Of a stretch of 48,385 bases of DNA, positions 3,528 through 37,149 are shown piece after piece (the stretch's first letter is position 1; every line of letters starts with the position of its first letter). The stretch spans positions 1 through 48,385 of IMG/VR virus record IMGVR_UViG_3300010033_000002; one strand, 5' to 3'. The DNA comes from a virus. Made by a program: the position numbers and the translations under genes. The notes under the pieces are model-generated. The model saw only the letters and a list, made by a program, of their open reading frames with translations, was not told where the DNA came from and ran no database searches.

Positions 3528-3779
3528 TTACTGTTTCCTCTGTCTTAGATTTTTGTAGTGTCTGGCCCAAAATATTTCTTTGCACCTATTGGTGCAGTAG
3601 CGTTTGTTGCTCTTAGATGTTTTTACAACCTTTCCACATGTGGGGCATGGGAAGGTATAAAGCTTTTTCTTTTTAAGGATAACTTTGTCACGGCATTTGT
3701 CGCAGGTCTTACGCGCCATATGGCCTAAGAATTTTTTACCGCACTCTTTACACCTTAACACTCTGTCGACTACTGGCAT
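3528..3779 (-). CDS. Small zinc-ribbon protein (four CxxC pairs)
   Basis: CKEC, CDKC, CPTC and CTNRC with a basic tail. Its stop abuts the polymerase start. Confidence 0.75.
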   Translation of the reverse strand: MPVVDRVLRCKECGKKFLGHMARKTCDKCRDKVILKKKKLYTFPCPTCGKVVKTSKSNKRYCTNRCKEIFWARHYKNLRQRKQ

Positions 3780-5527: not shown

Positions 5528-7095
5528 AACTTGCTTTCTCCTTTGTAGTCTATGGGGACTTGCTCAATCTTTTCCTCATCCTTGCCCCTAAGCTTTATGG
5601 CTATGCCATTTTTCTGCAAAGTTTTTAAGGGGATGTACCAACCTCTGTTGCTTTGACCTATTTCCGGCATTCTGAGCTTTTTAGAACTGTCTGCCCCCAT
5701 TTCACGTAGCAACTTGTGATGCATAGACTTCGGCCAACTTCTAAACATACCTGATTTTTCCAAGTGTTCTAAAAGCTTAGAACCTTTAAACCACATATTA
5801 TCTTTGTCATCTTGCCATACTAAACCCTCTTCAATTGCACTTGGTATAGCTGCTTTCCTGGTGCTAAAAAATTCCTCAACCTTGCCCAACCATAGAGAAT
5901 CTCCAGACATATCGTCTGATGTACTTTCTTCTACAACAACGGAATTCAATGCCCTGTTTAATATTTCACTCCAAGCAGCATCTTTAAGCCTGCAAGGTAC
6001 ATGATGTAGGTATCTCAGGCACAGCTCACGAAACTTGCCCTGATTCATTAATTCTGTTTCGGTATAAAAGAACATATCAACACCGTTTATTGTCCACTTA
6101 TAATAGGGTTGTGAGCACACAACTTGTACAAGTCTTTCAAAGGACAAATCACTGACATTTCCAGCACCTTTGCCATAGTGCCTGAGCTTACATAGGTCTT
6201 TGTCGCAGCACTCTTTTAAAGTTCCATCTGAACATTGATAACTGTATTCGCCTTTTTTATGTGAGGATATAACCGTATTTTCAAGTTCCCCTGGATCTAT
6301 GGGGAAGTCTATCTTAGAGTTCAATGTTTGTAGCTTGTTACCAAAGTCATCCCCAAACCTGGCCTTTAAATATACAGCACAGTTGAAGAGAAAACTGTTT
6401 CGCCCACCTTTATCAGGGCCACCCTGTAAATAGAGCGCTTGCAAGCATGGAGGAGCCTCTGACAAGGGTATATGCTCAAGTGCCTTGGTCAGCTCTTTGA
6501 GTGTGACACGATTGAGCATAGCTGTCTCTATGGCTTCTTCTATTGCCATAGGGGAGCCGTCTAAACTATAGGCATATCGCGCAGTGTTTTTATAATTAAA
6601 GTAGGGTATGTTTATGTAATTCCCTGTGCCTATCAATCTTGTTTGCTTAGGGAATACTTCAGTGTCTTTAGGTAAACCTAATATTACACGTATTTGCTGT
6701 ATTAAGGGCACTGCTTTTTCAGCAAGCGTATCTTCAGAGAAAAAGCAATATAAATGCAATCCACCTGACTTGCTCCGAAATCCCATCAAGGGCAGTTGTG
6801 CCCTTTTGAGGATCTTTAAATATGTAACAGGGTTTAAAGGGTATACGTCAACGTCTATTGCGGCAAACCGTATGTTATGGTTTTTGTCAATAGGTACAAT
6901 ACCGATGGATTCCGCGCCGTGTATATGCTTCAGGTAATGCTCAAGTAAAAGAGGTTCAGTCTTGGTAAAGGATTTGCCTTTAGCTTTTTCTCCTGCTTTA
7001 AAAGGTCCTTTATCAGGAACATGCACCCCTCTTACTGAGTTATTACCCCGGAACAACTCCGCAAAGGCGTCGGCGAATTTCCGGGCGAAGGTCAT
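5524..7095 (-). CDS. Archaeo-eukaryotic-type primase-polymerase (PrimPol) with PriCT-like domain
   Basis: AEP motifs: AAIDVDVY (DxD) and FRSKSGGLHLYCFF (sGGxH). The downstream segment GGRNSFLFNCAVYLKARFG resembles a primase C-terminal domain. Confidence 0.8.
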   Translation of the reverse strand: MTFARKFADAFAELFRGNNSVRGVHVPDKGPFKAGEKAKGKSFTKTEPLLLEHYLKHIHGAESIGIVPIDKNHNIRFAAIDVDVYPLNPVTYLKILKRAQLPLMGFRSKSGGLHLYCFFSEDTLAEKAVPLIQQIRVILGLPKDTEVFPKQTRLIGTGNYINIPYFNYKNTARYAYSLDGSPMAIEEAIETAMLNRVTLKELTKALEHIPLSEAPPCLQALYLQGGPDKGGRNSFLFNCAVYLKARFGDDFGNKLQTLNSKIDFPIDPGELENTVISSHKKGEYSYQCSDGTLKECCDKDLCKLRHYGKGAGNVSDLSFERLVQVVCSQPYYKWTINGVDMFFYTETELMNQGKFRELCLRYLHHVPCRLKDAAWSEILNRALNSVVVEESTSDDMSGDSLWLGKVEEFFSTRKAAIPSAIEEGLVWQDDKDNMWFKGSKLLEHLEKSGMFRSWPKSMHHKLLREMGADSSKKLRMPEIGQSNRGWYIPLKTLQKNGIAIKLRGKDEEKIEQVPIDYKGESKF

Positions 7096-7757
7096 TATCT
7101 TGTCCTGTTGTTGGAGAAGGTGAAAAGGTAGTCTTGATACAAATCATTGTCATGCAGGTAGGCAACCAAATCGTGGACGGCCTGAGACAACTGTGCCCCA
7201 ATATACCGCATGTCAGATTCACTGTGTTCAATTGGGATTTCATAGGTGTCAACAAGTTCCTTTCTGTCCTCACCTGCCCATTCTGCAACAAGGTATTTAA
7301 AGAATGTTTTGCCAGTCAGATATGGGTACAAACGATGTTGCCAGCCTTTTTTATACTTCTGTTCGCCTTTGTAATTAATAGTTGTCTTGATGTCATAAAT
7401 TCTGTCATCAAATTCAACATCCATTTTGCCATAGAATACAACGTTATATTCCCCTATCTGCAATTCCTTCTTGCAAACCTGTTGAAACTTGCCGCCTATG
7501 CATGCAGTCGCAATTTTGTTGAAGTGTTTTGACCCTTCAGTAACTTCCTTAAGCCCTTCAAACTCGGCGATTTGTGCGAATTTTTGCACCTCATCTTCAA
7601 AGGCATTACCCCATTGCACCCATTCGGGCATTTTGCCATATTCACGGCGTATGGTCTGTATGAAACCGGCCTCCGCTCTTTCCTTCCATGATGGTGGGGC
7701 GTTCTTGGCGAATTCCAATTTGTCTAATAAAGTCGGGGTTATCAAGTGTGTAGTCAT
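7095..7757 (-). CDS. PD-(D/E)XK family nuclease (phage exonuclease-like)
   Basis: GKMDVEFDDRIYDIKTT (D...D-x-K core) and QHRLY (QhxxY). There is a strong SD (AAAGGAGTTTTTAATG) at 7757. Confidence 0.7.
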   Translation of the reverse strand: MTTHLITPTLLDKLEFAKNAPPSWKERAEAGFIQTIRREYGKMPEWVQWGNAFEDEVQKFAQIAEFEGLKEVTEGSKHFNKIATACIGGKFQQVCKKELQIGEYNVVFYGKMDVEFDDRIYDIKTTINYKGEQKYKKGWQHRLYPYLTGKTFFKYLVAEWAGEDRKELVDTYEIPIEHSESDMRYIGAQLSQAVHDLVAYLHDNDLYQDYLFTFSNNRTR

Positions 7758-8133
7758 TAAAAACTCCTTTTAGTATAGCCACTTGATCTCTGTGGCCCAC
7801 AGCAAGCATATAATTAAGTTTTAAAGTCTGTGCGCGTTTCATGTAGGGCAGTTGTCCAGGTTGCCATTTGAGGTTGTCAAGCACAGACATAAGTCTATTC
7901 ACTTTTAGCATTTTACACTCTATAAACCAGTATTCCGCGCGTCGGAGTAACAGAACATCAGGGGTGCCATTTTGGTCCATATTCTCGATGTTATGGAACT
8001 TCCATCCCAATGGCCTTGACACATTTTTAATCAAGGCTTCAAGGGTTGTTTCACGCTTTAATGGGGACCTTAGCCTGAAAACTTCACAGGCTAAGGTATT
8101 TCCCATCAGGTCATAGGTTTGTTTGAATGTCAA
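7642..8133 (-). CDS. VRR-NUC / Holliday-junction-resolvase-like nuclease
   Basis: GTPDVLLL ... YWFIECKM ... WQPGQLPYM fits the D...ExK...Q pattern of VRR-NUC. The last 116 nt overlap the next gene out of frame. Confidence 0.65.
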   Translation of the reverse strand: MTFKQTYDLMGNTLACEVFRLRSPLKRETTLEALIKNVSRPLGWKFHNIENMDQNGTPDVLLLRRAEYWFIECKMLKVNRLMSVLDNLKWQPGQLPYMKRAQTLKLNYMLAVGHRDQVAILKGVFNDYTLDNPDFIRQIGIRQERPTIMEGKSGGRFHTDHTP

Positions 8134-8918
8134 AAGTTAGCTTTACCGGGATCTGTGCCGCCGGACGTGTTGGCACTTTCAGGAGCTTCAAGTAATGCAA
8201 GGTCAAGTGATTTATTGGGCAGTTCTTTGCGCTCTTCCACAACGTGGGTTAGGAGGTCAGGTGTAACAAACTGGTTAAATGTTATGTTGATACCCTCCCA
8301 TGAACCTTTATCGTTTGATTCTTCTGTGGTTTCAAGGTTCCAGACCATGAAATATGGCAAAGCCTTTGTGGTCTTTCCGGGTATAACGGTCCTGGTAAGA
8401 TTCATATTCAGTTTTTTGGCCTGTTTAAGTTGTGTTGATGTGAAACTGAACACGCACACACCGTCCTCAAGGTAGTCAGGAAACAGGACATAATAGACGT
8501 ATGTGTCCTGATATTCATTTCCTGTTGCCCTTGATACAAGCTTGCCCAGGTCATTACGGAACAGTTCACCACTGAACTGCATTTTTTCAATGAGTTCGGC
8601 GGCATGGGCATCGACGTACCCGCCCCTGTTTGGTTTCCATTCGATGTAATACCGCTCGAATTTGCCTACAACGAATCGCAAGGGTTTTTCGTAAACCCGT
8701 CCTGTTATCGTGTTTACGATATCGCCTTCGTCAAGTTCAGGGTCAAAATCCGCTGACCGCTTGTCAAGCTGAGGGCTGAGTTTCTGCATGATCCTCACAA
8801 ATGGGATTGCCATTGTGTCCATGTTCAGGTCCTCAAAGCCTGAATCTTCTCCCATAAGTTCGTTGAAGTGGTCAAAGTTGACTTGGGTTTCTTTCTTGTC
8901 TGCTTTTGCTTTTGCCAT
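8130..8918 (-). CDS. Conserved replication-module protein, function unknown (possible ssDNA-binding or annealing role)
   Basis: 262-aa ORF in the slot held by SSB-like proteins in PolA/SNF2/VRR-NUC phage modules. I could not recognise an OB-fold signature. It ends in ...GKANF. Confidence 0.75.
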   Translation of the reverse strand: MAKAKADKKETQVNFDHFNELMGEDSGFEDLNMDTMAIPFVRIMQKLSPQLDKRSADFDPELDEGDIVNTITGRVYEKPLRFVVGKFERYYIEWKPNRGGYVDAHAAELIEKMQFSGELFRNDLGKLVSRATGNEYQDTYVYYVLFPDYLEDGVCVFSFTSTQLKQAKKLNMNLTRTVIPGKTTKALPYFMVWNLETTEESNDKGSWEGINITFNQFVTPDLLTHVVEERKELPNKSLDLALLEAPESANTSGGTDPGKANF

Positions 8919-9420: not shown

Positions 9421-9996
9421 CTACTTGACCGTGGTTTTGTTAAGCTGGAATACTGTAATCATATCCTCATCCAGTTCAGCTAAGGACATTTCAGCCTCTG
9501 TTTTGCCGTTAATGCCACATAGTTCTCTGATATATTTCGCCAATGTGGCAGGATGTACTTTCATGTCAACCCTTGTTTCAATGCCAAAGTTTTCAGCCAT
9601 GTGCACAATGATCTTAGACAAGATCTCTTTGGGAAGCTTGCCCATAACCATAGTGCTGTTGATGATTGATGAATCACCCCTGTCATTTACGAAGTCCTGA
9701 AACTTTGCCATGTCTTTAATAGAGCAGGACACATCCTCTTTGTATTCCACTGTCTTGCCGTTTGTGAGCTTCACAGACTTCAAACCGACACCCATTAGGG
9801 CCTCCGGTATCATGGTTTGGGAAATGGTGTTGAGTTCCTTTTTTATTTCCTTTGCATGAGCCTCCGCCGCTTTATGCTGCTCTTTAAGTTCCAAGAACTT
9901 TTCTGCAAGGGTTGCAATACGCGCTAAGGCATCGCTTTTGTCCTGGGATTCAAGTTCGGTGTTTAAATGCTCTTCAAGATAATTGAAATCGTTCAT
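9421..9996 (-). CDS. Coiled-coil protein, Gp157/Gam-like architecture (function uncertain)
   Basis: N-terminal coiled coil (LAEKFLELKEQHKAAEAHAKEIKKEL) followed by GLKSVKLTNGKTVEYKEDV. This layout resembles siphovirus Gp157 / Mu Gam-type proteins. Confidence 0.7.
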   Translation of the reverse strand: MNDFNYLEEHLNTELESQDKSDALARIATLAEKFLELKEQHKAAEAHAKEIKKELNTISQTMIPEALMGVGLKSVKLTNGKTVEYKEDVSCSIKDMAKFQDFVNDRGDSSIINSTMVMGKLPKEILSKIIVHMAENFGIETRVDMKVHPATLAKYIRELCGINGKTEAEMSLAELDEDMITVFQLNKTTVK

Positions 9997-10005: not shown

Positions 10006-11646
10006 TTACACTTTAAAAATGTCATTAATACTTACGTCCACGAAACAACTGTTTAAGTCTTTCCCTTGTCTGAGTACGTCTAAAACCCTCCTTTCAGTTG
10101 GTATATCACATAATAAGTCCTTATATACTGGGTTACTGGCTGTACCTATCCTGTGGGAACGGTCTTCAGCCTGTAATCTTGCCTCTGTTCTGTAGTTTCT
10201 TGAATACCAGTATTGCAGCAAAGCACCCTGTAAATTAAGCCCGTAACCGCCTACAGTGGGGTTACTTACAAGGCATTGAAATTCACCGGCCTTGAACTGT
10301 TTAACCTTGTCATTGTCAGATTCAGGGTCTGTAGAGTTGACACCATAAAGAGCCTTACAAGTTGTGACCTTTGACAGTTCCTCATAAAGCAACTCTATTT
10401 CTGGCCTAAACACAGCCCAAACGATAAATTGTTGGTTACCGACTTCTGGCACACTTTCTACAAGGTGTTGTAACTTGTAGTTTGTACCCTTGATTTTTGT
10501 TGGTTCGAACTTGCCTTCTATGTCAGTGTGATGTGCAACAAATCCGCCGCAGATCTGCAAGACTCTCATACTTAACAAGGCCCTAACCTCTATAGTCAGT
10601 TCGTGCTCGTCAAAGGTTGTCATAGAGTATTTTTTAAGGTCCTTTATAAGGCGTTTTTGCTCAGGATTAAGGGGCAATGTGATTGTTTCATAGATTTTTT
10701 CAGGAAGGTCTAAGCAGTCTTCTTTGCTTGCAGAAAAGGTCACAGGTGCTATCTTTTCCTGCAAGCGTCTAAGATTCTTGTGGGCGATAAGTTCGTCAGA
10801 GCTTGCAATCAAATGGAAATCCTCAGCGCTTAAACCGTATTGGTCACGTATGGCCGCTGCCCTGTATGTATCAATCTGCCCATTCTCACAGGCGTTTTTT
10901 ATCGCAGTCTGGACCTTTTTATGGTATACGGGGTCTATGACATCAAGTCTTGATACAAGACGCCCTTTGCGCTCAAATGTCTTCTTGACCATTACAGTGT
11001 GCTCTTTTTGAAATGCAGTATATGTACATTTCATATAACCCTTGTTAAGGAACTCATACAAAGACCACAAGTCGGCTGGCCTCTTTGCTGCCGGTGTGCC
11101 TGTGATTATACACCGACAGCAGGAGCTAAGCTGTCTTCTAAGCTTGAAAAGGTTTCTGACAGTTTTTGTTCCAGGGTTTTTGATTCGGCTGGCCTCATCG
11201 ACTATGATCATAAGTTTCTCAGGATTGCCGTTGCAAAACCTGTGCACAAGTTCGGAACCTGCGTCCCTTGCAAAGGACTCTATATTGATTGTAAAAACCA
11301 TTGTAGAGGGTTCAGTTTTAGCCCGCATCATGAATAGGTCAAGGTCCCTTATGTAGCTCTTCTTTTTATTCTTTGCAAAGTAAGAGAATCCCACCCATGG
11401 CAAAGGATAATGGGCAGGGAATTGCTCATCTACCCATTGGGGATGCACAGCGTTAAGGGTTATGACTACAACTCTATTAAGGCCAAACAACAGGTTTTTA
11501 TAGCCTATGATATCAATTGCAGTCTTAGACTTTCCTAAACCCATGTCTTCCAAAAGTGCAAAGTACTGCGCATCTTTAAGCTTGTCGTAGGCCTCTTGCT
11601 GATGCGTGTAGGGCTTTGTTTTTGGCACATAATAAGGGGCACTCAT
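10006..11646 (-). CDS. SNF2-family helicase/ATPase
   Basis: Motif I LEDMGLGKSKT; motif II IIVDEASRIKN; motif III ITGTPAAKRPADLWSLYEFL; motif V GGYGLNLQGA; motif VI QAEDRSHRIGT. Confidence 0.93.
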   Translation of the reverse strand: MSAPYYVPKTKPYTHQQEAYDKLKDAQYFALLEDMGLGKSKTAIDIIGYKNLLFGLNRVVVITLNAVHPQWVDEQFPAHYPLPWVGFSYFAKNKKKSYIRDLDLFMMRAKTEPSTMVFTINIESFARDAGSELVHRFCNGNPEKLMIIVDEASRIKNPGTKTVRNLFKLRRQLSSCCRCIITGTPAAKRPADLWSLYEFLNKGYMKCTYTAFQKEHTVMVKKTFERKGRLVSRLDVIDPVYHKKVQTAIKNACENGQIDTYRAAAIRDQYGLSAEDFHLIASSDELIAHKNLRRLQEKIAPVTFSASKEDCLDLPEKIYETITLPLNPEQKRLIKDLKKYSMTTFDEHELTIEVRALLSMRVLQICGGFVAHHTDIEGKFEPTKIKGTNYKLQHLVESVPEVGNQQFIVWAVFRPEIELLYEELSKVTTCKALYGVNSTDPESDNDKVKQFKAGEFQCLVSNPTVGGYGLNLQGALLQYWYSRNYRTEARLQAEDRSHRIGTASNPVYKDLLCDIPTERRVLDVLRQGKDLNSCFVDVSINDIFKV

Positions 11647-11942: not shown

Positions 11943-12836
11943 TTAATCCTTTTCAATTGTGTGCCAGTTTTTATGCACATGTCTTAGTATGCCCCTGTAT
12001 TCAGTTTCAAGGGCTTCTCTTTCATGCCATTTGTCCCAATCAATGTACTTTTCTATATGGTGTTCAACGATATTTCTCATTTTCATTGGGTCAAGGGCAT
12101 CGAGTTCCCAAGAGTCATTTCCGAATTTTTTGATATACATCCATGACCGCGTGTCGGTAATCTTGGCAGGGGCAGGGGGAGGGTTAAAAGCCTGTACTTG
12201 ATCCATGTTTAATGCTATACGCTCCACCTTGCAATAGTTGCCGAACAGGTGTTGCCGGTCCTCAATGTCCCTGGTCATGTCAACGCCTGATGGGTCATGG
12301 TCTCCAAGGTAGATCAAAATTGTGTCTTGACCACGTGTCTTTTTATAGTGTTTAAAACGCTCTTTTGCCTTCCACATGGCGGACTGACTGTTGTAACCCT
12401 TGCAAGCCAAGTAGGGTACATCAAGCTTTAAGCAAGGGCTACTAATAACGCTCATTAAGGCATCTTTTTCTATCCACACTTCAACACGTTGCTCCTGGGT
12501 TTGCCACATGGACATGTAAAACCCTTGCATGGCATCAAAAATAGCCTCACCTGGATTATCATAGTGCCTCACAGCATGTACCTGTCTTACGGTGTCCTCT
12601 ATGGCTGTCCAATCTACCATACCGGCCAAACGTGCTTTTGATAAAATGCTGCCCAAACGTTTGTAACTGCGCATATTGTTTTCGATCAAATCACGGGCAA
12701 CGAACTGATAATATAACTGCCGTAAAGTCAGTGTTATATTGTAGCCTTGATATTCGTTTATGATGCTGTTTGCCTGGGCTATGACGCCTATTGATGAGCG
12801 GTTGAACCTGTGGCCTATGAATGCTTCACGTGTCAT
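11943..12836 (-). CDS. Topoisomerase VI subunit A / Spo11-like 'mini-A' protein (winged helix + Toprim)
   Basis: TLRQLYYQFV matches the catalytic-Tyr motif context. VEVWIEKDAL matches the Toprim Glu motif (VEKdav). ACKGY and YLGDHDPSGVDM match the D.DP.G Toprim acidic cluster. Confidence 0.6.
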   Translation of the reverse strand: MTREAFIGHRFNRSSIGVIAQANSIINEYQGYNITLTLRQLYYQFVARDLIENNMRSYKRLGSILSKARLAGMVDWTAIEDTVRQVHAVRHYDNPGEAIFDAMQGFYMSMWQTQEQRVEVWIEKDALMSVISSPCLKLDVPYLACKGYNSQSAMWKAKERFKHYKKTRGQDTILIYLGDHDPSGVDMTRDIEDRQHLFGNYCKVERIALNMDQVQAFNPPPAPAKITDTRSWMYIKKFGNDSWELDALDPMKMRNIVEHHIEKYIDWDKWHEREALETEYRGILRHVHKNWHTIEKD

Positions 12837-12845: not shown

Positions 12846-13307
12846 CTAATCGTTCATTAACTTTTTAATGTACACAGGCGAGTGTGGAGAGCATTGGTTT
12901 TTCCACTCACCGTCAATAAAATCAATTTCACCAGCGTATACCCTTTTTCCATGGGTTGTGTAACCCTGTTCACCTGGGCAATGGGTTGTCAAAGAACCTT
13001 CTATAAGTCCACAGTCTTTACATACAAACAACCCGCTGTCGCATATTGGGCAGTAGAATTCAGCGCAATTTTCATGTTTAATTGGCGTATGTTCTTTTGG
13101 TAAAACCCCACCTTCAACAGAGGTTTTGAAATCTTTGTAAATTTCAGGGTAGCGCGCCTTAAACTCTGCCTCTGCAATAAACCTATGCTTAAAGTAACCA
13201 TCGCCCATTCCTGTATCTTCCTCTATGATATGATAATGCCCTCCCCAACCGGATTTTATAACACTTATTGCGAATGAATTAAATGTGTAATACTTATGAA
13301 GTTTCAT
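12846..13307 (-). CDS. Cys-rich hypothetical protein
   Basis: CAEFYCPICDSGLFVCKDCG...HCPGE. Clean ORF. Confidence 0.7.
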   Translation of the reverse strand: MKLHKYYTFNSFAISVIKSGWGGHYHIIEEDTGMGDGYFKHRFIAEAEFKARYPEIYKDFKTSVEGGVLPKEHTPIKHENCAEFYCPICDSGLFVCKDCGLIEGSLTTHCPGEQGYTTHGKRVYAGEIDFIDGEWKNQCSPHSPVYIKKLMND

Positions 13308-13319: not shown

Positions 13320-14564
13320 TTAAAACTTGACGTTTGTAATGTCTTCAAACTCCATGTAGCAGTCTGACTCGTTCTTATCAGACCTGAAACCGAGGTCCCA
13401 GTTGACCCTTGCATGCATCAGGCGTCTGTTTTTGCCGGACAACTCCTGCCCATCAACAATGAGCACCTTTCCAAGGTAAGCTTCTTTGTCATATGTTAAA
13501 CGGTTGCGCATGTCAAGAGGCATACTTGTAACTGTTGCAATGTGGTGAGGTTTTTCTGATATGTTGGTGTTTACTGCAAGTTCTATGCCGCCTATAAGGC
13601 CCTCTTTGCTCCACTCAGGTGTGTCAATGTAGCCTGTGATAAAAGCGTCGATATCGTCGCCTACGTCGCCAGACATACGCCGTTTGACCTTAACCTGATT
13701 ATCACGATGCCTGGCACCAGGTACGTACAACCCTTCAGAGTTCTTGAGTATGATACCTTCACAACCTGCTTTCCACAACTGGTTACAAAATCGTTTCTTT
13801 CCTGATGTAACCATATGTGAGGTGTTAAATTGGTTATGCACAAGGATGTTTTCAACGGCATAGGCAGTATCAGATTTTCTCGTTCTGTGGTAAAGCTTTG
13901 AGTTTTCTACAATAGTATCAAAGCAGTAAAACTCAATCCTGACATTCCCTGGTATCTGCAATTCCCGTGCCCTGTTAACGCTTGAACCAATAATGTTTTG
14001 GACGGCTTCAAGTGTATTGGATGACATACGGCCATCAAGGCCCTCAACGCTGGCCTTGCAAATGACCTCACAGTCCACGATAAAGTTGACACTGCTTTGT
14101 GACCTTGGTTCAAATTCAGACAGGGGTATGTCAATAGGCAAAATAGATCCTGCTTTGAGCATGATATGCTCTGTATAATCTTTGGGCAAAAAGTCAGTTG
14201 TGGACAGGTTTCCGCCCCAGGCCATGAAGCTGTGCTTTTTTCCGTCATTGATGTAGGTCAAACGCATGCGCCAACCGTTGTATTTCTCTTCTGCAATCCA
14301 TCCGTTGTTATCTTCCCACATTTCCTGTTGCTGTTCGGGCCGTAATTTGTCGTACTGAAAGGCCTTCATTGGGGGATATTTACGTATCAGTTCAAGGTGT
14401 TTGAGCTGGTGTTCGTTATACTCCCTTGTGGGAGTATAATGCGTACCAAGGGCATATTCAAGGTCCCTTGCTACTATCCTGCGGTTCCTTCCGGTCCCAT
14501 ACTCAGGAAGTTTTACGCCTTCTTTTTCCATAAGGGCTATCAGTTTAGTCGTTGTAAGTCTCAT
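13320..14564 (-). CDS. lig: ATP-dependent DNA ligase
   Basis: Motif I AEEKYNGWR (KxxG adenylation Lys); motif III FIVDCEVI; motif IIIa EFYCFD; motif IV CEGIILKN; motif V NQVKVKRR. Confidence 0.85.
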   Translation of the reverse strand: MRLTTTKLIALMEKEGVKLPEYGTGRNRRIVARDLEYALGTHYTPTREYNEHQLKHLELIRKYPPMKAFQYDKLRPEQQQEMWEDNNGWIAEEKYNGWRMRLTYINDGKKHSFMAWGGNLSTTDFLPKDYTEHIMLKAGSILPIDIPLSEFEPRSQSSVNFIVDCEVICKASVEGLDGRMSSNTLEAVQNIIGSSVNRARELQIPGNVRIEFYCFDTIVENSKLYHRTRKSDTAYAVENILVHNQFNTSHMVTSGKKRFCNQLWKAGCEGIILKNSEGLYVPGARHRDNQVKVKRRMSGDVGDDIDAFITGYIDTPEWSKEGLIGGIELAVNTNISEKPHHIATVTSMPLDMRNRLTYDKEAYLGKVLIVDGQELSGKNRRLMHARVNWDLGFRSDKNESDCYMEFEDITNVKF

Positions 14565-14827
14565 TTTGCGCTCCTTCTCTTAGATTTTGATGGTAGTTTA
14601 TTGCCCTGATCGTCTCTGTATTCAACATTATACAACCAAAGGGGCGTTTGACACTTTATACAGTGGGTCTGATGACCTAATTGGTAGTCCCTATCATCAA
14701 GGGTTGTATCACAATCGGGGCATACCCAAAACCTTTGTTTGTCAATCACTGCCGGTAAGGGCTTACGTTCAACAAGGTTATTTAATGGCTCCATAGGCTC
14801 AAACATTGTTTTAATAAAGTCAAACAT
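14561..14827 (-). CDS. Small zinc-ribbon protein (start moved to the internal ATG)
   Basis: TAAGGAGTGGCCTATG places an SD before MFDFIKT.... Contains CPDC...CIKC. Confidence 0.6.
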   Translation of the reverse strand: MFDFIKTMFEPMEPLNNLVERKPLPAVIDKQRFWVCPDCDTTLDDRDYQLGHQTHCIKCQTPLWLYNVEYRDDQGNKLPSKSKRRSAK

Positions 14828-14837
14828 AGGCCACTCC

Positions 14838-15443
14838 TTAAAAAGGTATCTCATCATCAAATTCAAAGGGGTCTGTTGCAAACATCCGGGCATAGTACTG
14901 TATCAAGTCCTGTCGTTGATCATGCTGGTTAAACAAGTAACCCGCTCTTGACGAGTCCTTGAGTTGTTGCGAACTGTCAATCAGGCCTTCATCTATATCA
15001 AGACCAACCAACATAGAAACAGCGCTTTCAAAATGGCCTATTTCAAAGGCCAAATCAGTGCGGTTGGTGATAGGTGTTTCGTCATTTGGATTGTGATTTT
15101 CATAGCCGAACCTTAGTACCTTGCATATGGTTTTTATGACCTCAGAACTTTCTTCCGCAAGTATTGCAAGCCTTTCAATTTCACCCGGTGTAAGAGCTGG
15201 TAAAGAGTTCTTATGCCAGTTTTGTATTGTTCTAAACCATTCCATGCGCTTTAACGCATGGTTTACAATTGGTTTAGGCGCAACATGCCACTCCCCGCAG
15301 GTGAATTCCAGGCCACCATTAGAAATGGCGTAAAGAGTTGCGTCGTCAAGTTCATATCCGCAACATTGATCTGTTAACTGATCTCCACTGCCGCCACAAA
15401 CTTTACAAACCCTTGTGCCAGCTAAAAATATATGCTCAGTCAT
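14838..15443 (-). CDS. MazG-like (all-alpha NTP pyrophosphohydrolase-like) protein with N-terminal Cys cluster and SSB-type acidic C-terminal tip
   Basis: Start at the ATG of ATGACTGA, which overlaps the upstream stop, with GAAGGAGA upstream. LAILAEESSEVIKTICKVL and DLAFEIGHFESAVSMLVGLDID resemble the MazG EExxE/ExxD helices. The protein ends ...DPFEFDDEIPF*. Confidence 0.55.
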   Translation of the reverse strand: MTEHIFLAGTRVCKVCGGSGDQLTDQCCGYELDDATLYAISNGGLEFTCGEWHVAPKPIVNHALKRMEWFRTIQNWHKNSLPALTPGEIERLAILAEESSEVIKTICKVLRFGYENHNPNDETPITNRTDLAFEIGHFESAVSMLVGLDIDEGLIDSSQQLKDSSRAGYLFNQHDQRQDLIQYYARMFATDPFEFDDEIPF

Positions 15444-15627
15444 TTTGTTTAATCTCCTTCTTTTTGAATATTGTACCGATAGTCTCGCCATCTGCCCATT
15501 CTTTACCCTGCAACATTGCAGACAGTTTAACACGCATTTTGGCTTTTGATAACTCCCTGTTGGCCTTGTAACATGACTCTGCAAGAGATTTCATGGCGTC
15601 AGGATTGTAACGTCTATTCAGGGTCAT
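15436..15627 (-). CDS. Hypothetical small basic protein
   Basis: 63-aa ORF, translationally coupled on both sides. Confidence 0.5.
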   Translation of the reverse strand: MTLNRRYNPDAMKSLAESCYKANRELSKAKMRVKLSAMLQGKEWADGETIGTIFKKKEIKQND

Positions 15628-16024
15628 TGTCTTCTCCGTCTGTTTCAGTAGGGGTGTATAAGGCTTCTACACGTTCTTCCAAGTCTCTGGCGTCGAATTC
15701 GAACATATCAAGCTGTTGAGATAAGTTCAAGTGTTCTTCAAACCGGCCATATACAGCTGTCCAAAAGGCCCATTTTCCACGAATGTTCATTTCAAATCGT
15801 GCCATTTGCAACTTGTCTTCTGTATACCAGTCTGTTGACTCAAAAGTTTCACAAGCACGGCAAGGGTACAAATGTGACGTATGCTTAGTAATATGCGCAA
15901 TGCATATAGAATCTTCCATGAGGATATCCATACAAGAATCAAATGGCAAGTAATCGGGATCATGTATCATGTTAATGGCAAGCTGATTACATATGCGGTT
16001 GTATCTGATGTTATCCATTGTCAA
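15614..16024 (-). CDS. Hypothetical protein with acidic C-terminus
   Basis: Clean ORF. No recognised motif. Confidence 0.65.
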   Translation of the reverse strand: MTMDNIRYNRICNQLAINMIHDPDYLPFDSCMDILMEDSICIAHITKHTSHLYPCRACETFESTDWYTEDKLQMARFEMNIRGKWAFWTAVYGRFEEHLNLSQQLDMFEFDARDLEERVEALYTPTETDGEDNDPE

Positions 16025-16661
16025 CCCCTTTCCTGGGTTTAGACCATGTTGAGTTGATATACTTTAGCACAAGCAAAGCCAAATCTGCGCAAGGGTAAGT
16101 CAACCACTCGCTATAAAAGCTGGAAAACAAGGTACATTGCATGGTCCTTTTGCCGAGTTTTGAGTGATCGAAATCATTGCTATTCCATCTGACTGGGCAT
16201 TTCCGGCAATCGTTATCGGCATAATGGCATGCCGGATTTTTGAAGTCAAGACCGAATAAACCCCCATATCCGTGAAGCTCACATGCCCGGCGTTGTATAT
16301 CCATTGACAACCGTATAAGCTTAGGAACAGATATATCAAGGGTGTCAAGGTTGCTGTATGTGTCAGCTATTGTACCCCAAATAGATATCATAACCTTTTT
16401 AAGTACGCCCTTTGGCGTGTCTTTCTTGACTGGTTTAATGTCCCAGTGCCTGTAGCAAACGCCACATTCGACTGTAGGACGGTTTACACAAATGAATGCA
16501 TGGCCGTTAAGGCCCTGGCAAGACAGCCCTTTAACACCTGCACATTTAGTCAATGGGCTATGATCAAACGGCGCGGCACCTTCCAAGTCGTTCTCAATGT
16601 CGTCTGCAAGGTTTTTCAACTGCTGCTGAGTAAACTTCTTAGTAGGGTAATCAATGATCAT
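16011..16661 (-). CDS. Cys-rich protein, distant fourth member of the CPLC/CxxCP paralog family
   Basis: ISIWGTIADTY ... ACHYADNDCRKCPV ... C..F..FY ... DLALLVLKYIN parallels the pattern in 17164-18885. SD is AAAGGAGCGCAAAATG. Confidence 0.7.
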   Translation of the reverse strand: MIIDYPTKKFTQQQLKNLADDIENDLEGAAPFDHSPLTKCAGVKGLSCQGLNGHAFICVNRPTVECGVCYRHWDIKPVKKDTPKGVLKKVMISIWGTIADTYSNLDTLDISVPKLIRLSMDIQRRACELHGYGGLFGLDFKNPACHYADNDCRKCPVRWNSNDFDHSKLGKRTMQCTLFSSFYSEWLTYPCADLALLVLKYINSTWSKPRKGVDNG

Positions 16662-16672
16662 TTTGCGCTCCT

Positions 16673-16969
16673 TTAATATTTAAGTTCAGCATCATATTCT
16701 GTTATCAAGCCGAATGCATCTATGTAAAATTTCTTATCCTGGACGCCGAATCTCACAACCTTGTGATCCATCGACAGCTTTTCCCAATCGTCACGTACCA
16801 TGTCTTCAACAAGGAATGTTTTTATCTCAATCTGGTCTTTCTCAGGTATGATTTTAGCGGCAACCATAATGCCAGGCATGGTGTTTGTGATTGAAATGCA
16901 AGTTCCGTTAGGTGCGTTTGTACGAGTTGTATAGGCCAGGTTACAGTTTTTGAAAGGGTCAGTAAACAT
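16673..16969 (-). CDS. Hypothetical protein (98 aa)
   Basis: Clean ORF. TAAATG junction with the upstream reading frame. Confidence 0.65.
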   Translation of the reverse strand: MFTDPFKNCNLAYTTRTNAPNGTCISITNTMPGIMVAAKIIPEKDQIEIKTFLVEDMVRDDWEKLSMDHKVVRFGVQDKKFYIDAFGLITEYDAELKY

Positions 16970-17164
16970 TTAACCCCCTATGCCCATTAAAAGGCCTGTT
17001 ATGATCATCGGTATGGTGCCGTATAATACAAAGTCTGAAAAGGATTTGTACCCTTCTACCTTGCCATCAAGCAGCATGTCAAGGTAAATTGAGTACATAA
17101 CGCAGGCTGACAAACCCTATATACCCAGTAGACCTATAACTTTCATTATACCGTCCATTATCAT
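16970..17164 (-). pseudogene. 64-codon two-TM membrane-protein frame interrupted by one in-frame TAG
   Basis: AAGGAGACTACTAATG start at 17164. The frame exactly fills the gap to 16970 and reads MIMDGIMKVIGLLGI*GLSACVMYSIYLDMLLDGKVEGYKSFSDFVLYGTIPMIITGLLMGIGG*. The TAG is at 17117-17119. Confidence 0.4.
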
Positions 17165-17640
17165 TAGTAGTCTCCTTTGTATATTTGTTTGATGCACCAG
17201 CGCCTGACATCGAGTAGGAACTTTACTTCAAGCAAAGCTATTTGTCTAATTGTGTTGTATTCCACGTGGGCGGAGCCTAATGGGAACAGTTTAACACGTA
17301 AAATTTGACGTAGTTCATCGTTGTAACTGGTATAAGGTGTATCTCTACATGTACGTTTACCTGTATATTCTTTTATGGGACAAAAGCGGCAATAGAACTC
17401 TCTACGGACTATAGTTTTAAAACGTTCGCCTACATATGAAGGGTGAAATAGGTGGCATAATGGGCATGAATCCATGCCTGCCTGTTCTGGATATGTGGCT
17501 GTGCTTCTTTTTATCCAAGTCTTTATACTTTTGTTAAGGGCAATCATTGTATTAGGCGTCGGGGTATAGCTTTTGTTAGCCCTTATGTCTGTAGTAAAGG
17601 CTATTCTTAAAGCTGTTTCCATATGGTCAAGTGGAGGCAT
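17164..17640 (-). CDS. CPLC/CxxCP Cys-rich paralog 1
   Basis: SIKTWIKRSTATYP...CPLC...CRFCPI...C.DTPYTSY...EVKFLLDVRRWCIK. Confidence 0.8.
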   Translation of the reverse strand: MPPLDHMETALRIAFTTDIRANKSYTPTPNTMIALNKSIKTWIKRSTATYPEQAGMDSCPLCHLFHPSYVGERFKTIVRREFYCRFCPIKEYTGKRTCRDTPYTSYNDELRQILRVKLFPLGSAHVEYNTIRQIALLEVKFLLDVRRWCIKQIYKGDY

Positions 17641-17641
17641 A

Positions 17642-18220
17642 TCAGGCTCCTATTCCGTAATAAATTTTGATTAACCTACGCCGGATCTCAAGCAACAATT
17701 CAAGCATTTCAAGGGCTTCTTTTCGGCATTGGGTGAAAAGAGGGAAGAATTTGTAGCTGTCAAGGCCTTTCAAGTGTTCCTTTGTTATGGGCATGATATC
17801 ATTGTGTATATTGGGATCTACATCGTCAAGATGAGGCTCATAGACCATAGTGTTTATACTTTTATAACCTATCCTTAGAGTGTGGATGTAATTGGAATAC
17901 GGGGTGAATTCACAACCGCCCATATCGGTAAACTTGGCAATAGGGCAGTTTGGGCAATTTATATGCCCAGTGACTTTGTTGGTGAAATACACACAGAGGG
18001 GGCAGTCTTCTGATTTATGGAACTTAGGCCAGGTAGCAATTGAGTAACGTTTCCAGACCTTGATTGACTCATTTAAGGGTTTGAATAACTTATGAATGGA
18101 CTGTTTTACTGTCAGTGTTGAAAGGTCTGTAATAGTGAACCGTACATAGCCGCTATTCACACTTTCTTCTGCATCGGCGAAATCGAGAAAAGCTAAGTCT
18201 CTTACAATATAATCACTCAT
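17642..18220 (-). CDS. CPLC/CxxCP Cys-rich paralog 2
   Basis: SIKVWKRYSIATWP...CPLC...CPNCPI...CEFTPYSNY...EMLELLLEIRRRLIK. Confidence 0.8.
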   Translation of the reverse strand: MSDYIVRDLAFLDFADAEESVNSGYVRFTITDLSTLTVKQSIHKLFKPLNESIKVWKRYSIATWPKFHKSEDCPLCVYFTNKVTGHINCPNCPIAKFTDMGGCEFTPYSNYIHTLRIGYKSINTMVYEPHLDDVDPNIHNDIMPITKEHLKGLDSYKFFPLFTQCRKEALEMLELLLEIRRRLIKIYYGIGA

Positions 18221-18231
18221 AATGTGCTCCT

Positions 18232-18885
18232 TTAAAGGGTTTTAATGACCTTGTTTCTTATGTTGATCAAGAATTGTACTTCATCAACTGCGTGTTTCCG
18301 GGCTTCACTGAATATTTGGTAGGGGTGTTTTGATTCTGGTAAATGATAAAATGCAGTGTCTGAGGCTATGTGGTGTGATGCTGCATAACGTCTGCACGGG
18401 GTCTCTCCACATGTGTCGCCTGTTACCTTATATATTATGCAACGATTGCAGTAGTTGCTTGCAATACAAAGAGGGCATAAGTATGTCGAACTTGGTAAAG
18501 GGTAAAATGCGGTCGTGCGATCAAGCCACATGCTTATAGTTGTATTCAATAAATGTACATTTTTATAACGTCTTAAACCAGGGCTGCGCAAAATAGTGTC
18601 AACCTGTGCTATAACTTCTCTTTCAGCTTTTCTTTCGGAACCTGCGATTAGGCACTGTACTATACGTGTATGTTTAATGCAGTTGTACTTAAAATATTCT
18701 AAACGCCTTTTAAGCTCATGATAATAGCATTTAAAGGCTTCTATGTACACTTTACATTCATGGTACACGGCGTAGACTGTTACATAGTCAGTCAGTGTTT
18801 GCCTGTATTCAACAAAACCTACTGTTTTACACGGTTTTGTATGCCTTATGACCATTTCGTATGATTCTTCTTTGGCAAGTTTCAT
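18232..18885 (-). CDS. CPLC/CxxCP Cys-rich paralog 3
   Basis: TISMWLDRTTAFYP...CPLC...CNRCII...CGETPC..Y...EVQFLINIRNKVIK. Confidence 0.8.
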   Translation of the reverse strand: MKLAKEESYEMVIRHTKPCKTVGFVEYRQTLTDYVTVYAVYHECKVYIEAFKCYYHELKRRLEYFKYNCIKHTRIVQCLIAGSERKAEREVIAQVDTILRSPGLRRYKNVHLLNTTISMWLDRTTAFYPLPSSTYLCPLCIASNYCNRCIIYKVTGDTCGETPCRRYAASHHIASDTAFYHLPESKHPYQIFSEARKHAVDEVQFLINIRNKVIKTL

Positions 18886-18897
18886 TATGTGCGCTCC

Positions 18898-19104
18898 TTA
18901 GTCTAAGGTTTCTATTGCATATGAGTCCTCAAACAATTCCACCTTGTCCATTGGGATGTCGAAAAGCTCCCCGTTTAAATCAAGTGTTACCTTGTTCGGA
19001 AAGAGTTCCTTGATAGGGAAGTTTGACCCGGCGGTGTATGTACCATAAGAACGTTTTAAGTCTTCTTTGATCCTGGCTTTTGTCTCAATTACTCTTGTTC
19101 TCAT
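18898..19104 (-). CDS. Hypothetical protein (68 aa)
   Basis: SD GGGAGCGCACAATG. Clean ORF. Confidence 0.6.
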   Translation of the reverse strand: MRTRVIETKARIKEDLKRSYGTYTAGSNFPIKELFPNKVTLDLNGELFDIPMDKVELFEDSYAIETLD

Positions 19105-19517
19105 TGTGCGCTCCCACTCTTTTCAATGTCAGCTTCATACATGGTCTTTATAAGTTCATCTACGTTCTTATATATTGACGTAGTTATTACAAACTTTAAA
19201 CCCCGGGGTATTGCCAATGTAATGACCTTACAAAACCTCATCAAAGACTTTTGACAAGTAACTGTTGGTAGGTCTGACAGGCTTGAGATAGTTGTGGGGT
19301 CTATGGAAAAGTGCTTGCAAGTGCTTTTAATAACATGAATAATATCATGTGCAGAATGTAAGTTCTTACAGGGTATATGTAGACTGCCTTCATTTATAAA
19401 TATAACGACCTTGAATGATTCTATATTTTGCAAGGGTGCTGTAACTATAGCTAAAACAGCATTTCCTACACATGTAGAATAAAGACATTGGGCCTTTTTG
19501 TTGTTGTCTGTTCTCAT
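19101..19517 (-). CDS. Hypothetical protein (138 aa)
   Basis: Preceded by the conserved 31-nt leader. Clean ORF. Confidence 0.7.
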   Translation of the reverse strand: MRTDNNKKAQCLYSTCVGNAVLAIVTAPLQNIESFKVVIFINEGSLHIPCKNLHSAHDIIHVIKSTCKHFSIDPTTISSLSDLPTVTCQKSLMRFCKVITLAIPRGLKFVITTSIYKNVDELIKTMYEADIEKSGSAQ

Positions 19518-19548
19518 TGTGCGCTCCTGTGTCGTGGTTGACCTTAAG
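19518..19548 (-). promoter_or_regulatory. Conserved 31-nt translation-initiation leader, copy 1
   Basis: Minus strand CTTAAGGTCAACCACGACACAGGAGCGCACA, followed by ATG. It matches 20005-20035 at 28 of 31 positions. Confidence 0.6.
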
Positions 19549-20005
19549 CGTGCCTCAGTTTGTTGGCAAGATTGGTGATATGCTTAGCTTCTGCTTTAGA
19601 TGGTGTCCAACTTGTATACAAGTCTGATTGGACTTTTTTAGCCTTAACATATTCGGGCAGAGGTTTGCACCAATCGAAACCTTTTTCACTCAGCAAACTT
19701 CGTATTATATCTGCCTGTTTTTTAGACACAAAGCCTCTTGTGGAGTATTGCTTGACTACAGATGAGTAAAACCTTTTTCTAAACTCTGAACGAAATTTGA
19801 CAGCCTTATAGCACTTAATAAACAATTCCATCATTGGTGCTGTCATGGCACCATAATAGGCGTTGCGTCTATCATCATCACAAATAAAAACTTTCCATAG
19901 GGCTTTTCTATAAACCTTTCGACAAGAAAAGCCTATTCCATCGGGGTTGTCATCTGATATTGCTGCCCCACAAATGCAGCATCTTCTTCCCTCAAATGTT
20001 TCCAT
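19544..20005 (-). CDS. First early-arm gene; Cys-containing hypothetical protein
   Basis: CCICG...SC near the N-terminus. Preceded by the conserved leader and a sigma70-like promoter. Confidence 0.75.
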   Translation of the reverse strand: METFEGRRCCICGAAISDDNPDGIGFSCRKVYRKALWKVFICDDDRRNAYYGAMTAPMMELFIKCYKAVKFRSEFRKRFYSSVVKQYSTRGFVSKKQADIIRSLLSEKGFDWCKPLPEYVKAKKVQSDLYTSWTPSKAEAKHITNLANKLRHA

Positions 20006-36693: not shown

Positions 36694-36705
36694 GGAGGCA
36701 ACACC

Positions 36706-37098: not shown

Positions 37099-37105
37099 TA
37101 AAGCA

Positions 37106-37139
37106 GCATGTGGCACAGCATTAATGCTGTGCCACATGC
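37106..37139 (+). terminator. 34-nt perfect palindrome (hairpin) after the head genes
   Basis: GCATGTGGCACAGCATT|AATGCTGTGCCACATGC. It has no U-tract, so it may be an attenuator or stability element rather than a strong terminator. It explains the mirror-image MWHSINAVPHA ORFs on both strands. Confidence 0.5.
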
Positions 37140-37149
37140 AGGAGCAATC

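Follow-up and report, generated by a model that had tools for sequence, protein, structure and literature searches.

Why a phage MazG-like protein should end in a peptide of the kind that forms the C-terminal tip of bacterial SSB is the question raised by this locus, which lies in a window (the whole stretch of DNA that was analyzed) of 48,385 nucleotides comprising positions 1 to 48,385 of IMG/VR record IMGVR_UViG_3300010033_000002. The SSB tip is the central signal by which genome-maintenance proteins are recruited in bacteria, with an interactome that takes in ExoI, RecQ, PriA, chi, RecO, RecJ, Ung, and DnaG, and it has been studied almost wholly as a property of SSB. The gene encoding the MazG-like protein (Table 1) has an ATG start codon, read from the sequence at 15441-15443 on the minus strand, and this start overlaps the end of an upstream 63-aa open reading frame (15436-15627), suggesting operon-style coupling.

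Table 1. Features of the MazG-like gene and its protein, and of the replication genes that share its window.
Feature	Position (nt)	Strand	Remarks
MazG-like protein gene with SSB-type tip	14838..15443	minus	201 aa plus TAA stop, complete
Shine-Dalgarno AAGGAG	15454..15459	minus	10 nt 5′ of the ATG of the MazG-like gene
Cys-rich N-terminal region, aa 1-55	15279..15443	minus	without detectable homologs
MazG-type all-alpha NTP pyrophosphohydrolase core, aa 78-173	14925..15212	minus	from homology and structure model
C-terminal extension, aa 174-201, HDQRQDLIQYYARMFATDPFEFDDEIPF	14841..14924	minus	lineage-specific
SSB-type tip FEFDDEIPF, aa 193-201	14841..14867	minus	C-terminal end of the MazG-like protein
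C-terminal peptide of the MazG-like protein, TDPFEFDDEIPF			P200 and F201 in the tip
PolA	1605-3527
Helicases	4157-5527 and 10006-11646
Primase	5524-7095
gp34-like candidate non-canonical SSB	8130-8918		family called SSB by one annotator
ATP-dependent ligase	13320-14564

The tail was first described in a sequence-only reading as DPFEFDDEIPF followed by a stop, and the same codons were recovered when the minus strand, which that reading had not named as the coding strand, was read (reverse complement of 14838-14873: GAC CCC TTT GAA TTT GAT GAT GAG ATA CCT TTT TAA). All of the sequence determinants of the SSB C-terminal motif (SSB-Ct) are present: the chain ends in Phe, preceded by Pro at -2 and Ile at -3 and by Glu, Asp, and Asp at -4 to -6. 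Such a tip is far beyond chance: based on the amino-acid composition of the window itself, a C-terminus of the form [DE]3[IL]PF is expected with a probability of 5e-7 per protein (∼4e-5 for ∼75 genes) and an exact FDDEIPF C-terminus with a probability of 1e-9 per protein. It is also the sole acidic tail ending in PF among the stop-to-stop open reading frames of ≥50 aa in all six frames of the window. The identical gene and its flanks were recovered with 0 mismatches from two public assemblies that may share one data origin, Logan SRR5215458 and ENA ERZ27245420, and the gene is thus not a one-off assembly error.

Upstream of the tail, the protein was found to be built around a MazG-type core. 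The helices originally likened to those of MazG-type enzymes, LAEESSEVIKTICKVL (aa 94-109) and DLAFEIGHFESAVSML (aa 129-144), are both present, and the MazG fold, proposed at that stage as something to be confirmed, was borne out by sequence and structure comparisons alike. PHROG 4856 (“nucleoside triphosphate pyrophosphohydrolase”) matched the protein over aa 89-148 (E=7.4e-10), and 1227 homologs were recruited at E≤1e-3, every match falling within aa ∼78-176. No Pfam or NCBIfam model matched the protein itself in direct scans; two of the homologs (P0002 and P0031) scored above the cut-off of Pfam MazG PF03819, and many others carry precomputed PF03819 matches. An AlphaFold2 model based on a multiple sequence alignment placed helices at aa 85-111, 126-144, and 151-165 with pLDDT of 92-98, and a structure search of BFVD returned six matches at E<1e-3, with MazG matches at E 4e-5 to 1e-3, including a “MazG putative catalytic core” with an rmsd of 1.5 Å over 82 columns. 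The family profile matched Bacillus subtilis YpjD (2gta) at E=0.009, and the top PDB structure matches, DCTPP1, DR2231, and YpjD, are all all-alpha NTP-PPases, but the matches are weak (E 0.2-1.7). A single-sequence AlphaFold2 model was discarded (pLDDT 37), as were mandelate racemase-type enzymes from a direct PDB sequence search, which were chance matches (E∼0.25), and PHROG 889 and PHROG 12840 (E=0.24).

The residues kept in the core are E89, R90, E96, E97, E100, K107, R110, G112, N126, E133, G135, and D148. All family-invariant or near-invariant residues are retained among them, including EExxE (E96, E97, E100), E133, D148, K107, and R110, and the alignment shows both the metal-binding acidic residues and the basic triphosphate-binding residues of the MazG family to be conserved. 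The Asp of the classical MazG ExxD motif is replaced by His136, as it is in most of 20 aligned subfamily members. The protein is predicted to be a catalytically competent NTP pyrophosphohydrolase, and its intact active site makes a functional enzyme more likely than a protein that is purely a scaffold.

The Cys cluster reported at the N-terminus was likewise present, comprising CKVCGGSG, a CxxCxGxG motif at aa 13-20 (nt 15384-15407), and CCG at aa 26-28 (the Cys pair at aa 26-27), together with C49/H53. This region was modeled with low confidence, and neither homologs, by homolog search, nor a confident structure were found for the N-terminal 55-78 residues. Within the MazG subfamily, seven further proteins also bear CxxC or CxxCxGxG modules, and one family member (P0083) matched the Pfam DnaJ_CXXCXGXG model below its cut-off. 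A 2301-aa protein (P0003) that aligned to aa 19-60 in 21 stretches was rejected as a homolog of the Cys-rich region; it is a repetitive protein and the match an artefact.

The MazG-like protein is not an SSB. Pfam, PHROG, and PDB gave no SSB match for it, and no OB fold was seen among the fold matches, the confident part of the model being all-alpha and the N-terminal 78 aa having no confident structure; nor did it match HMMs derived from 48 canonical and 27 gp2.5-like SSBs or from other tip-bearing clusters. The original observation that it has no OB-fold signature thus extends to HMMs, databases, and the structure model. The accompanying claim that the genome has no canonical SSB held in that none was found among the open reading frames of the window with canonical, gp2.5-like, and tip-bearing SSB HMMs or with PHROG, Pfam, and NCBIfam, but it must be qualified by the candidate non-canonical SSB listed in Table 1, in whose family every member has a flexible C-terminal tail closed by Phe. 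The MazG-like gene belongs to the replication module: the ATP-dependent ligase lies two genes downstream of it, and PolA, the primase, and the two helicases share its strand block. Another product of the phage is homologous to Pam3 gp33 (DUF7307), a protein described in the annotation of the Pam3 record as an inhibitor of host nucleases. The nearest isolates, at 35-49% identity, are Pam3, Pan1, and phages of Rhizobium, Stenotrophomonas, and Vibrio; a near DNA match was not found among phages, and no tRNAs were found in the window.

In the alignment, members of the MazG family end 0-7 residues past a conserved YLHHQ, which is aligned with YLFNQ at the end of the core of the protein studied here; beyond this point the latter continues for another 28 residues, forming a helix and then the tip. 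The helix is predicted at aa 173-187 with pLDDT ∼70 and is followed by coil at aa 188-200 with pLDDT ∼62, without homologs to inform the model there. In SSBs the tip follows a linker of ∼50 disordered residues; no long disordered linker of that kind was found within the 28 residues after the core, 15 of which are predicted to be helical, and the linker to the tip is short, with ∼5 coil residues after the helix. Given this short linker and a tail model confidence of only ∼62-70, the accessibility of the tip is uncertain.

A similar tip was found on none of the ∼340 MazG family members examined, which are only distantly related to the protein (core identity ≤55%). Orthologs were absent from 15 billion proteins, from 5.8 billion clusters and 1.84 billion representatives, and from IMG/VR; a word-indexed homolog search and a single-protein locus search returned solely the MazG-like protein itself. 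The sequence-only reading had singled out the lack of an acidic IPF tip in homologs as evidence against its proposal, and the tip is indeed missing from all ∼340; however, these relatives are distant and none is an ortholog. Absence from distant relatives, together with the lack of an ortholog, shows a lineage-specific addition and does not imply that the tip is without function. As judged from these sequence comparisons, the tip is a late addition to the MazG core, although selection on it is not demonstrable because there is neither an ortholog nor a tipped family member.

The same peptide was abundant outside the MazG family. Canonical SSBs of 52 bacterial species, most of them Alphaproteobacteria, truly end in EFDDEIPF, and canonical SSBs account for 52 of the 63 bacterial open reading frames with this ending; among 118 viral open reading frames ending in FDDEIPF, 48 are canonical SSBs and 27 are gp2.5-like. 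In a quick census, the same tips were also found at the ends of non-SSB proteins, specifically Cas4-type exonucleases, an SF2 helicase, a HerA-like ATPase, and an Abi_C protein, and of the small third open reading frames of IS21-type transposons, and the grafting recurs on >20 unrelated protein families. The tail had initially been handled as a unique case, a view that does not survive the finding that many phage and bacterial non-SSB proteins carry the same tip. None of the 236 viral open reading frames ending in FDDEIPF or FDDDIPF contains a MazG core.

The occurrence of the same tips on many non-SSB proteins indicates that the tip behaves as a portable docking module, and its presence on DNA-acting enzymes (Cas4-domain exonucleases, SF2 helicase, HerA-like ATPase) fits a module for recruitment. 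These carriers, the Abi_C protein, and the IS21 open reading frames suggest a general and largely undescribed phenomenon; no paper was found in the literature on SSB-Ct-like tips carried by enzymes, nor any that joins SSB-Ct with MazG. The pairing of a MazG enzyme with an SSB docking tail is new.

The explanation put forward here, tentatively, is that the MazG enzyme is tethered through its SSB-type tip to replisome or repair proteins that bind SSB tips. The tip would have been acquired from a proteobacterial SSB docking peptide, on a short helical extension, in one phage lineage; its terminal Phe with the free carboxylate, Pro, Ile, and acidic run would insert into the pockets used by the host SSB tip. 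It may bind partners of host SSB, replication proteins of the phage itself that have become adapted to host SSB, or members of both groups, and the enzyme would in this way be placed at replication forks, hydrolyzing unwanted (d)NTPs beside the polymerase. Because MazG-type enzymes oligomerize obligately, two to four tips would be presented, as by the SSB tetramer. The MazG core with its retained residues and supported fold, the agreement of the tip with real SSB tips far beyond chance, the location in a replication module, the adjacency of MazG and ligase in Pbunavirus NH-4, the tip-bearing DNA enzymes, and the precedent of T7 gp4 (described below) count in favor of tethering. Against it weigh the lack of any ortholog or tipped relative, the short linker with its low model confidence, the failure of the protein itself to reach a Pfam model, and His136 in place of the classical Asp, common though this is in the subfamily. 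For tethering we infer, rather than observe, an accessible and binding tip, its partner(s), the substrate of the enzyme, and its oligomeric assembly. A broader proposal, speculative and somewhat unlikely as a whole, is that phages and transposons graft the SSB tip as a portable module that gives entry to the host SSB interactome, the MazG-like protein being the first known nucleotide-pool enzyme wired to the fork in this way and its oligomer possibly also competing with SSB for host nucleases and helicases.

The main rival to tethering, judged unlikely, is a decoy. An oligomer presenting several tips would occupy the SSB-tip pockets of ExoI, RecJ, RecQ, Ung, PriA, or defense components that read SSB, so that host proteins would be uncoupled from SSB-coated ssDNA and phage DNA intermediates protected, with MazG activity being secondary or independent. 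Because the tip matches natural SSB tips exactly, it can be expected to compete with them for their pockets, and a short linker suits a soluble competitor as well as it does a tether; weak support comes from the homolog of Pam3 gp33, a nuclease inhibitor by annotation alone. Tipped phage proteins have also been implicated in ExoI interference and in the triggering of defense, as with Bas52_0087, which ends in FDDDIPF, in the DRT10 system (bioRxiv 10.64898/2026.04.29.721553). However, the MazG catalytic residues are all retained, which is needless for a pure decoy, and the tip is otherwise carried by DNA enzymes, to which recruitment, and not blocking, would be of use. The affinities between SSB tips and their partners are also weak, in the micromolar range, so a decoy would have to be very abundant.

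Less probable still, the tip may be directed at free host SSB itself, at ssDNA-SSB assemblies or condensates, or at the gp34-like candidate SSB, or may act within its own protein as a pseudo-substrate that binds the basic, NTP-binding side of the MazG domain and inhibits it. The conserved K107 and R110 line the MazG active site and could attract an acidic tail, and the tail lies near the core in the model; however, nothing points to a fold-back, model confidence in the tail is low, and the absence of acidic tails from other MazG family members means that autoinhibition is not a trait of the family. As for targeting of SSB, the interaction between tip and OB fold is weak and is displaced by ssDNA, which weighs against it, although the intramolecular binding of the E. 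coli SSB tip to its own OB fold is documented (PMC3936761).

It is also improbable that the tail is a relic, in which the 3′ end of a neighboring SSB gene became joined to the MazG gene by deletion and was kept in one recent lineage without a selected function. One of 80 viral loci of the family (L207), identified with a 21-sequence core alignment, has a MazG family gene followed directly by a canonical SSB gene ending in GEDVPF, making such a fusion route plausible; the architecture is a singleton, and the phage has no canonical SSB, as expected after loss. Residues 174-192, however, are unlike an SSB linker, being helical and without enrichment in Gly/Pro/Gln, the reading frame, stop codon, and exact consensus are all intact, and recurrence of the grafting on so many unrelated families argues that such fusions are kept because they work.

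Finally, it is very improbable that the MazG-like protein is itself an SSB-like hub of the phage in which the Cys-rich module binds ssDNA (T4 gp32 being a zinc-containing ssDNA-binding protein) and the tip has its ordinary SSB role, as the lack of a canonical SSB in the window and an N-terminus without homologs or confident structure would allow, since neither an OB fold nor a known ssDNA-binding domain was detected in it, the open reading frame at 8130-8918 is a better SSB candidate, and Zn-ribbon modules also occur on further small MazG proteins without a tip.

If tethering and the wider use of the tip are true, mobile elements reuse the SSB signal as a means of bringing any activity to the fork, or of jamming the hub, and phages that have a polymerase of their own can link sanitation of the dNTP pool physically to replication.

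The comparison with known systems begins with SSB itself. FEFDDEIPF is the same as the tip of E. coli SSB (...MDFDDDIPF) at six of nine positions, with two conservative changes, whereas the protein that bears it has neither the OB fold nor the long Gly/Pro/Gln linker of bacterial SSBs and is an enzyme. Host-type tips also occur on SSB-like proteins of phages (gp2.5-like, DUF669-like, and DUF3127, and Bas52_0087 with FDDDIPF), which share the ending in the host SSB tip, FDDEIPF being carried by the gp2.5-like and several other ssDNA-binding families; these are ssDNA binders doing the job of SSB, unlike the MazG-like protein, an enzyme without a detectable ssDNA-binding fold.

With other phage MazG proteins (PHROG 4856, PF03819, cyanophage MazG, and the Pbunavirus “MazG-like pyrophosphatase”), it shares the helical core, the EExxE motif, and the small size. 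Those proteins are likewise encoded in DNA-metabolism modules, adjoining the ligase in Pbunavirus NH-4, but the ∼340 relatives examined end at YLHHQ without an acidic tip. NH-4 gp51 (“MazG-like”) was rejected as a member of the same subfamily (hhalign probability 2%) and belongs to another MazG subfamily, and because it is not detectably related, the synteny of MazG and ligase is functional rather than orthologous.

In concept, the tip resembles the beta-clamp-binding motif QL[SD]LF, a short motif grafted onto many enzymes that brings them to the fork, and the T4 dNTP-synthetase complex, which is coupled to the replisome through gp32; motif and hub protein differ in these cases, and no sequence relationship is implied. 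A precedent is T7 gp4, a helicase-primase whose acidic, Phe-terminated tail binds gp5 where the gp2.5 tail is modeled (PDB 6P7E; PMC12339929). Like the MazG-like protein, gp4 is a non-SSB replication enzyme with an SSB-like acidic Phe tail, and it uses the SSB docking site. The T7 tails (DTDF, DGDF) are a phage-specific code carried in gp4 by a helicase, whereas the tail described here copies the host-type [DE]3-I-P-F and is carried by a nucleotide hydrolase.

The MazG-like protein ending in FEFDDEIPF, a tip of the type by which bacterial single-strand DNA-binding proteins (SSBs; E. coli ...MDFDDDIPF) dock replication and repair proteins, is encoded by a minus-strand gene with an AAGGAG site 10 nt 5′ of its ATG and a start that overlaps the preceding 63-aa ORF (15436-15627) by 8 nt. 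All the motifs quoted in the sequence-only reading were found in its product, and an identical protein with identical flanks (0 mismatches) is present in two public assemblies. Among all window ORFs ≥50 aa in a six-frame scan, it alone had an acidic tail ending in PF; from the window's amino acid frequencies, a [DE]3[IL]PF C-terminus would arise by chance at 5e-7 per protein, or ~4e-5 per genome of this size, and the exact heptapeptide FDDEIPF at ~1e-9 per protein. The SSB-type tip on this protein is real and not a chance occurrence. The 63-aa ORF separates the gene from ORF 15614-16024 (minus strand), two genes upstream, which has a strongly acidic tail (...TETDGEDNDPE) with the terminal aromatic absent and gave no homologs in PHROG, Pfam or NCBIfam.

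Residues 89-148 match PHROG 4856, a nucleoside triphosphate pyrophosphohydrolase family (E=7e-10), and exhaustive HMMER searching of 1.84 billion cluster representatives recruited 1227 homologs, all aligned to residues ~78-176 and, for most of the 150 listed, 95-160 aa long. Members of the family pass the PF03819 (Pfam MazG) cut-off and bear the JGI name 'NTP pyrophosphatase (non-canonical NTP hydrolase)', and the family profile matched YpjD, a MazG-type protein of B. subtilis. All family residues that are invariant or nearly so are retained (E89, R90, E96, E97, E100, K107, R110, G112, N126, E133, G135, and D148). AlphaFold2 with the family alignment gave a helical core at pLDDT 92-98, for which Foldseek returned viral MazG catalytic cores (E 4e-5 to 1e-3, one at an rmsd of 1.5 Å) and, from the PDB, weak matches headed by DCTPP1, DR2231, and YpjD; none of these fold matches resembled an OB fold. 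The model, the fold matches, and PHROG 4856 thus bear out the MazG-like fold without an OB fold proposed from sequence; we therefore regard the core as a MazG-type enzyme that is probably active.

Family members end 0-7 residues past a conserved YLHHQ, which here reads YLFNQ (169-173) and is followed by 28 additional residues, HDQRQDLIQYYARMFATDPFEFDDEIPF, predicted to form a helix at 173-187 (pLDDT ~70) and then coil (pLDDT ~62). That homologs might share the acidic IPF tip was not borne out, with a comparable tip in 0/263 family proteins and 0/80 further viral family genes. Because none of these family members has such a tip, and no whole-protein ortholog was found in protein collections that included the 1.84 billion cluster representatives, the tip is considered a lineage-specific addition. 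The N-terminal ~55 residues are Cys-rich, with CKVCGGSG conforming to the CxxCxGxG motif of DnaJ-type zinc fingers; this region yielded no true homologs, the single apparent one being a repeat artefact. Since CxxC or CxxCxGxG modules are also found at the N or C terminus of seven other subfamily members (P0031, P0083, P0139, P0085, P0090, P0093, and P0191), the zinc module is recurrent in this MazG subfamily.

The tip contains every known sequence determinant of an SSB C-terminus, namely a final Phe, Pro at −2, Ile at −3, and an acidic triplet. When one genome from each of 185,579 prokaryotic species was scanned for EFDDEIPF-stop, 66 loci were recovered, mostly from Alphaproteobacteria (Hyphomonadaceae, Paracoccus, Rhodobiaceae, OCS116, and Rickettsiales) and some from Gammaproteobacteria; canonical SSBs made up 52 of the 63 ORFs with this ending, so the tip reproduces a proteobacterial SSB tip exactly. 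The match also gives a hint that the host belongs to the Pseudomonadota.

In IMG/VR, FDDEIPF-TAA terminates at least 118 ORFs in at least 20 BLAST clusters, including at least 48 canonical SSBs, at least 27 gp2.5-like SSBs, DUF669-like SSBs, several small proteins, several function-unknown families, and the Cas4-domain exonucleases of loci L088 and L073 (PHROG 1990, E=1.5e-96). FDDDIPF-TAA likewise terminates at least 118 ORFs of viral contigs in at least 30 clusters (at least 51 canonical SSBs plus at least 28 further clusters), among them a Cas4-type exonuclease (L358) and an SF2 helicase (L303; Helicase_C, E=5e-15). Non-SSB carriers in bacterial genomes included a HerA-like DUF87 ATPase (L129), an Abi_C protein (L150), DUF3127, and proteins of 66-67 aa, two of which end exactly in FEFDDEIPF. 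The genes for these small proteins lie directly 3′ of a transposase gene and an ATPase gene belonging to IS21-type or related elements (Mu-transposase C-terminal domain plus IstB_IS21, or an rve-integrase/AAA_22 pair), and they could be transposon accessory proteins that dock onto the SSB interactome. The tip is carried by many unrelated proteins and so acts like a portable module. None of the 236 viral tip-bearing ORFs found (both endings) has a MazG core, so the pairing is new as a combination, both parts being already known; no paper was found that describes an SSB tip on MazG or on any other enzyme. The proposed architecture of a MazG-type core with an SSB-type tip was thus right, as judged by PHROG 4856, the model, and the identity of the tip to SSB tips.

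Features of the window and tip-bearing small proteins of bacterial genomes
Feature	Position	Strand	Remarks
PolA-type polymerase	1605-3527	minus	
Small ORF	3528-3779	minus	weak HNH-endonuclease similarity
Dda/RecD-like helicase	4157-5527	minus	
Primase	5524-7095	minus	
PD-(D/E)XK nuclease	7095-7757	minus	weak, under Pfam cut-off
Pam3 gp34-like protein	8130-8918	minus	Pfam Pam3_Gp34 PF23977, PHROG 2402
Pam3 gp33-like protein	9421-9996	minus	
Second helicase	10006-11646	minus	
PHROG 6247 protein ('DNA topoisomerase')	11943-12836	minus	
ATP-dependent ligase	13320-14564	minus	
MazG-like gene with SSB-type tip	14838-15443	minus	ATG start, 201 aa, C-terminus ...ARMFATDPFEFDDEIPF, then stop
Large terminase	24657-26306	plus-strand half	sole gene identified there
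66-67-aa tip proteins	L173:1010-1213, L153:2765-2965, L155:239-442, L136:3579-3782		four different bacterial MAGs

At ~48.4 kb, the window represents all or nearly all of a metagenome-derived phage genome; none of 50,697 phage records matched its DNA closely, and no tRNA genes were found. Its minus-strand half is a DNA-metabolism module in which the ligase lies two genes downstream of the MazG-like gene; the plus-strand half is largely unannotated and presumed structural. The large terminase shares 49% identity with those of Pseudanabaena phage Pam3 and Rhizobium phages, and the polymerase ~34% with those of phages infecting cyanobacteria and Proteobacteria. Except for the MazG-like gene, 14561-20005 is functionally dark. 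Small CxxC-pair-rich ORFs resembling zinc ribbons occur in the replication module (12846-13307, 14561-14827, 16011-16661, and 17164-17640, all minus), with no PHROG match for any, no Pfam match for 12846-13307 or 16011-16661, and no NCBIfam match for 16011-16661.

The lack of a canonical SSB noted from sequence held, in that window ORFs matched no HMMs of canonical SSBs, gp2.5-like SSBs, or other tip-bearing clusters, and PHROG, Pfam, and NCBIfam gave no SSB; however, the gp34-like protein is a candidate for a non-canonical SSB or annealing role. Homologs of it occur in 489 records of phages, Yuavirus and Pbunavirus among them, and one (Yuavirus PAC9) is annotated as an SSB. All four gp34-like members read have a Gly/acidic-rich tail whose last residue is Phe (GKANF in the window protein; GGGKPVF, GGKPVF, and ATEAEEF in the other three), although this tail is not the bacterial tip. 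The flanking gp33-like protein is labeled 'host-nuclease inhibitor' in the Pam3 record.

We tentatively favor, at somewhat under an even chance, a MazG-type enzyme tethered via its tip to proteins that recognize the host SSB tip, because the active site is intact, the context is a replication module, the tip is exactly host-type, other DNA enzymes carry it, and in T7 the helicase-primase and SSB tails use one docking site on the polymerase (PMC12339929). The tip would dock the active enzyme onto host SSB partners or phage replication enzymes, and unwanted (d)NTPs would then be hydrolyzed at the replication fork. The main rival, a multivalent decoy that titrates host SSB partners, seems unlikely. 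Among lesser possibilities, the tip may be a neutral fusion relic; at one of 80 viral loci (L207:933-1659), a gene of this small MazG subfamily slightly overlaps the canonical SSB gene directly following it, which ends in GEDVPF, and this arrangement suggests a possible route for SSB-tail capture by deletion. Alternatively, SSB itself may be the target of the tip, the tip may be autoinhibitory, or the protein may be an SSB-like hub acting via its N-terminal module. The functional reading, which draws on the sequence of a single lineage, is plausible.

The case is of broader interest in that the grafting of SSB tips onto mobile-element proteins other than SSBs appears to be general. Host-type tips have already been described on phage SSB-like proteins, e.g., Bas52_0087 (bioRxiv 10.64898/2026.04.29.721553). 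Pam3 (L122), the nearest isolate by terminase, encodes, at 36598-42186 of its record, two NTP pyrophosphohydrolases and thymidine-hypermodification genes (aGPT-Pplase1/2, Nmad5, and a thymidylate-synthase homolog); modification genes of this kind were not recognized among the annotated ORFs of the window. In Pseudomonas phage NH-4 (L191), a MazG-like pyrophosphatase gene (2933-3487) adjoins a DNA ligase gene (3542 onwards), a MazG-ligase neighborhood that the window shares. The MazG proteins of the two phages have no detectable relation (hhalign probability 2%).
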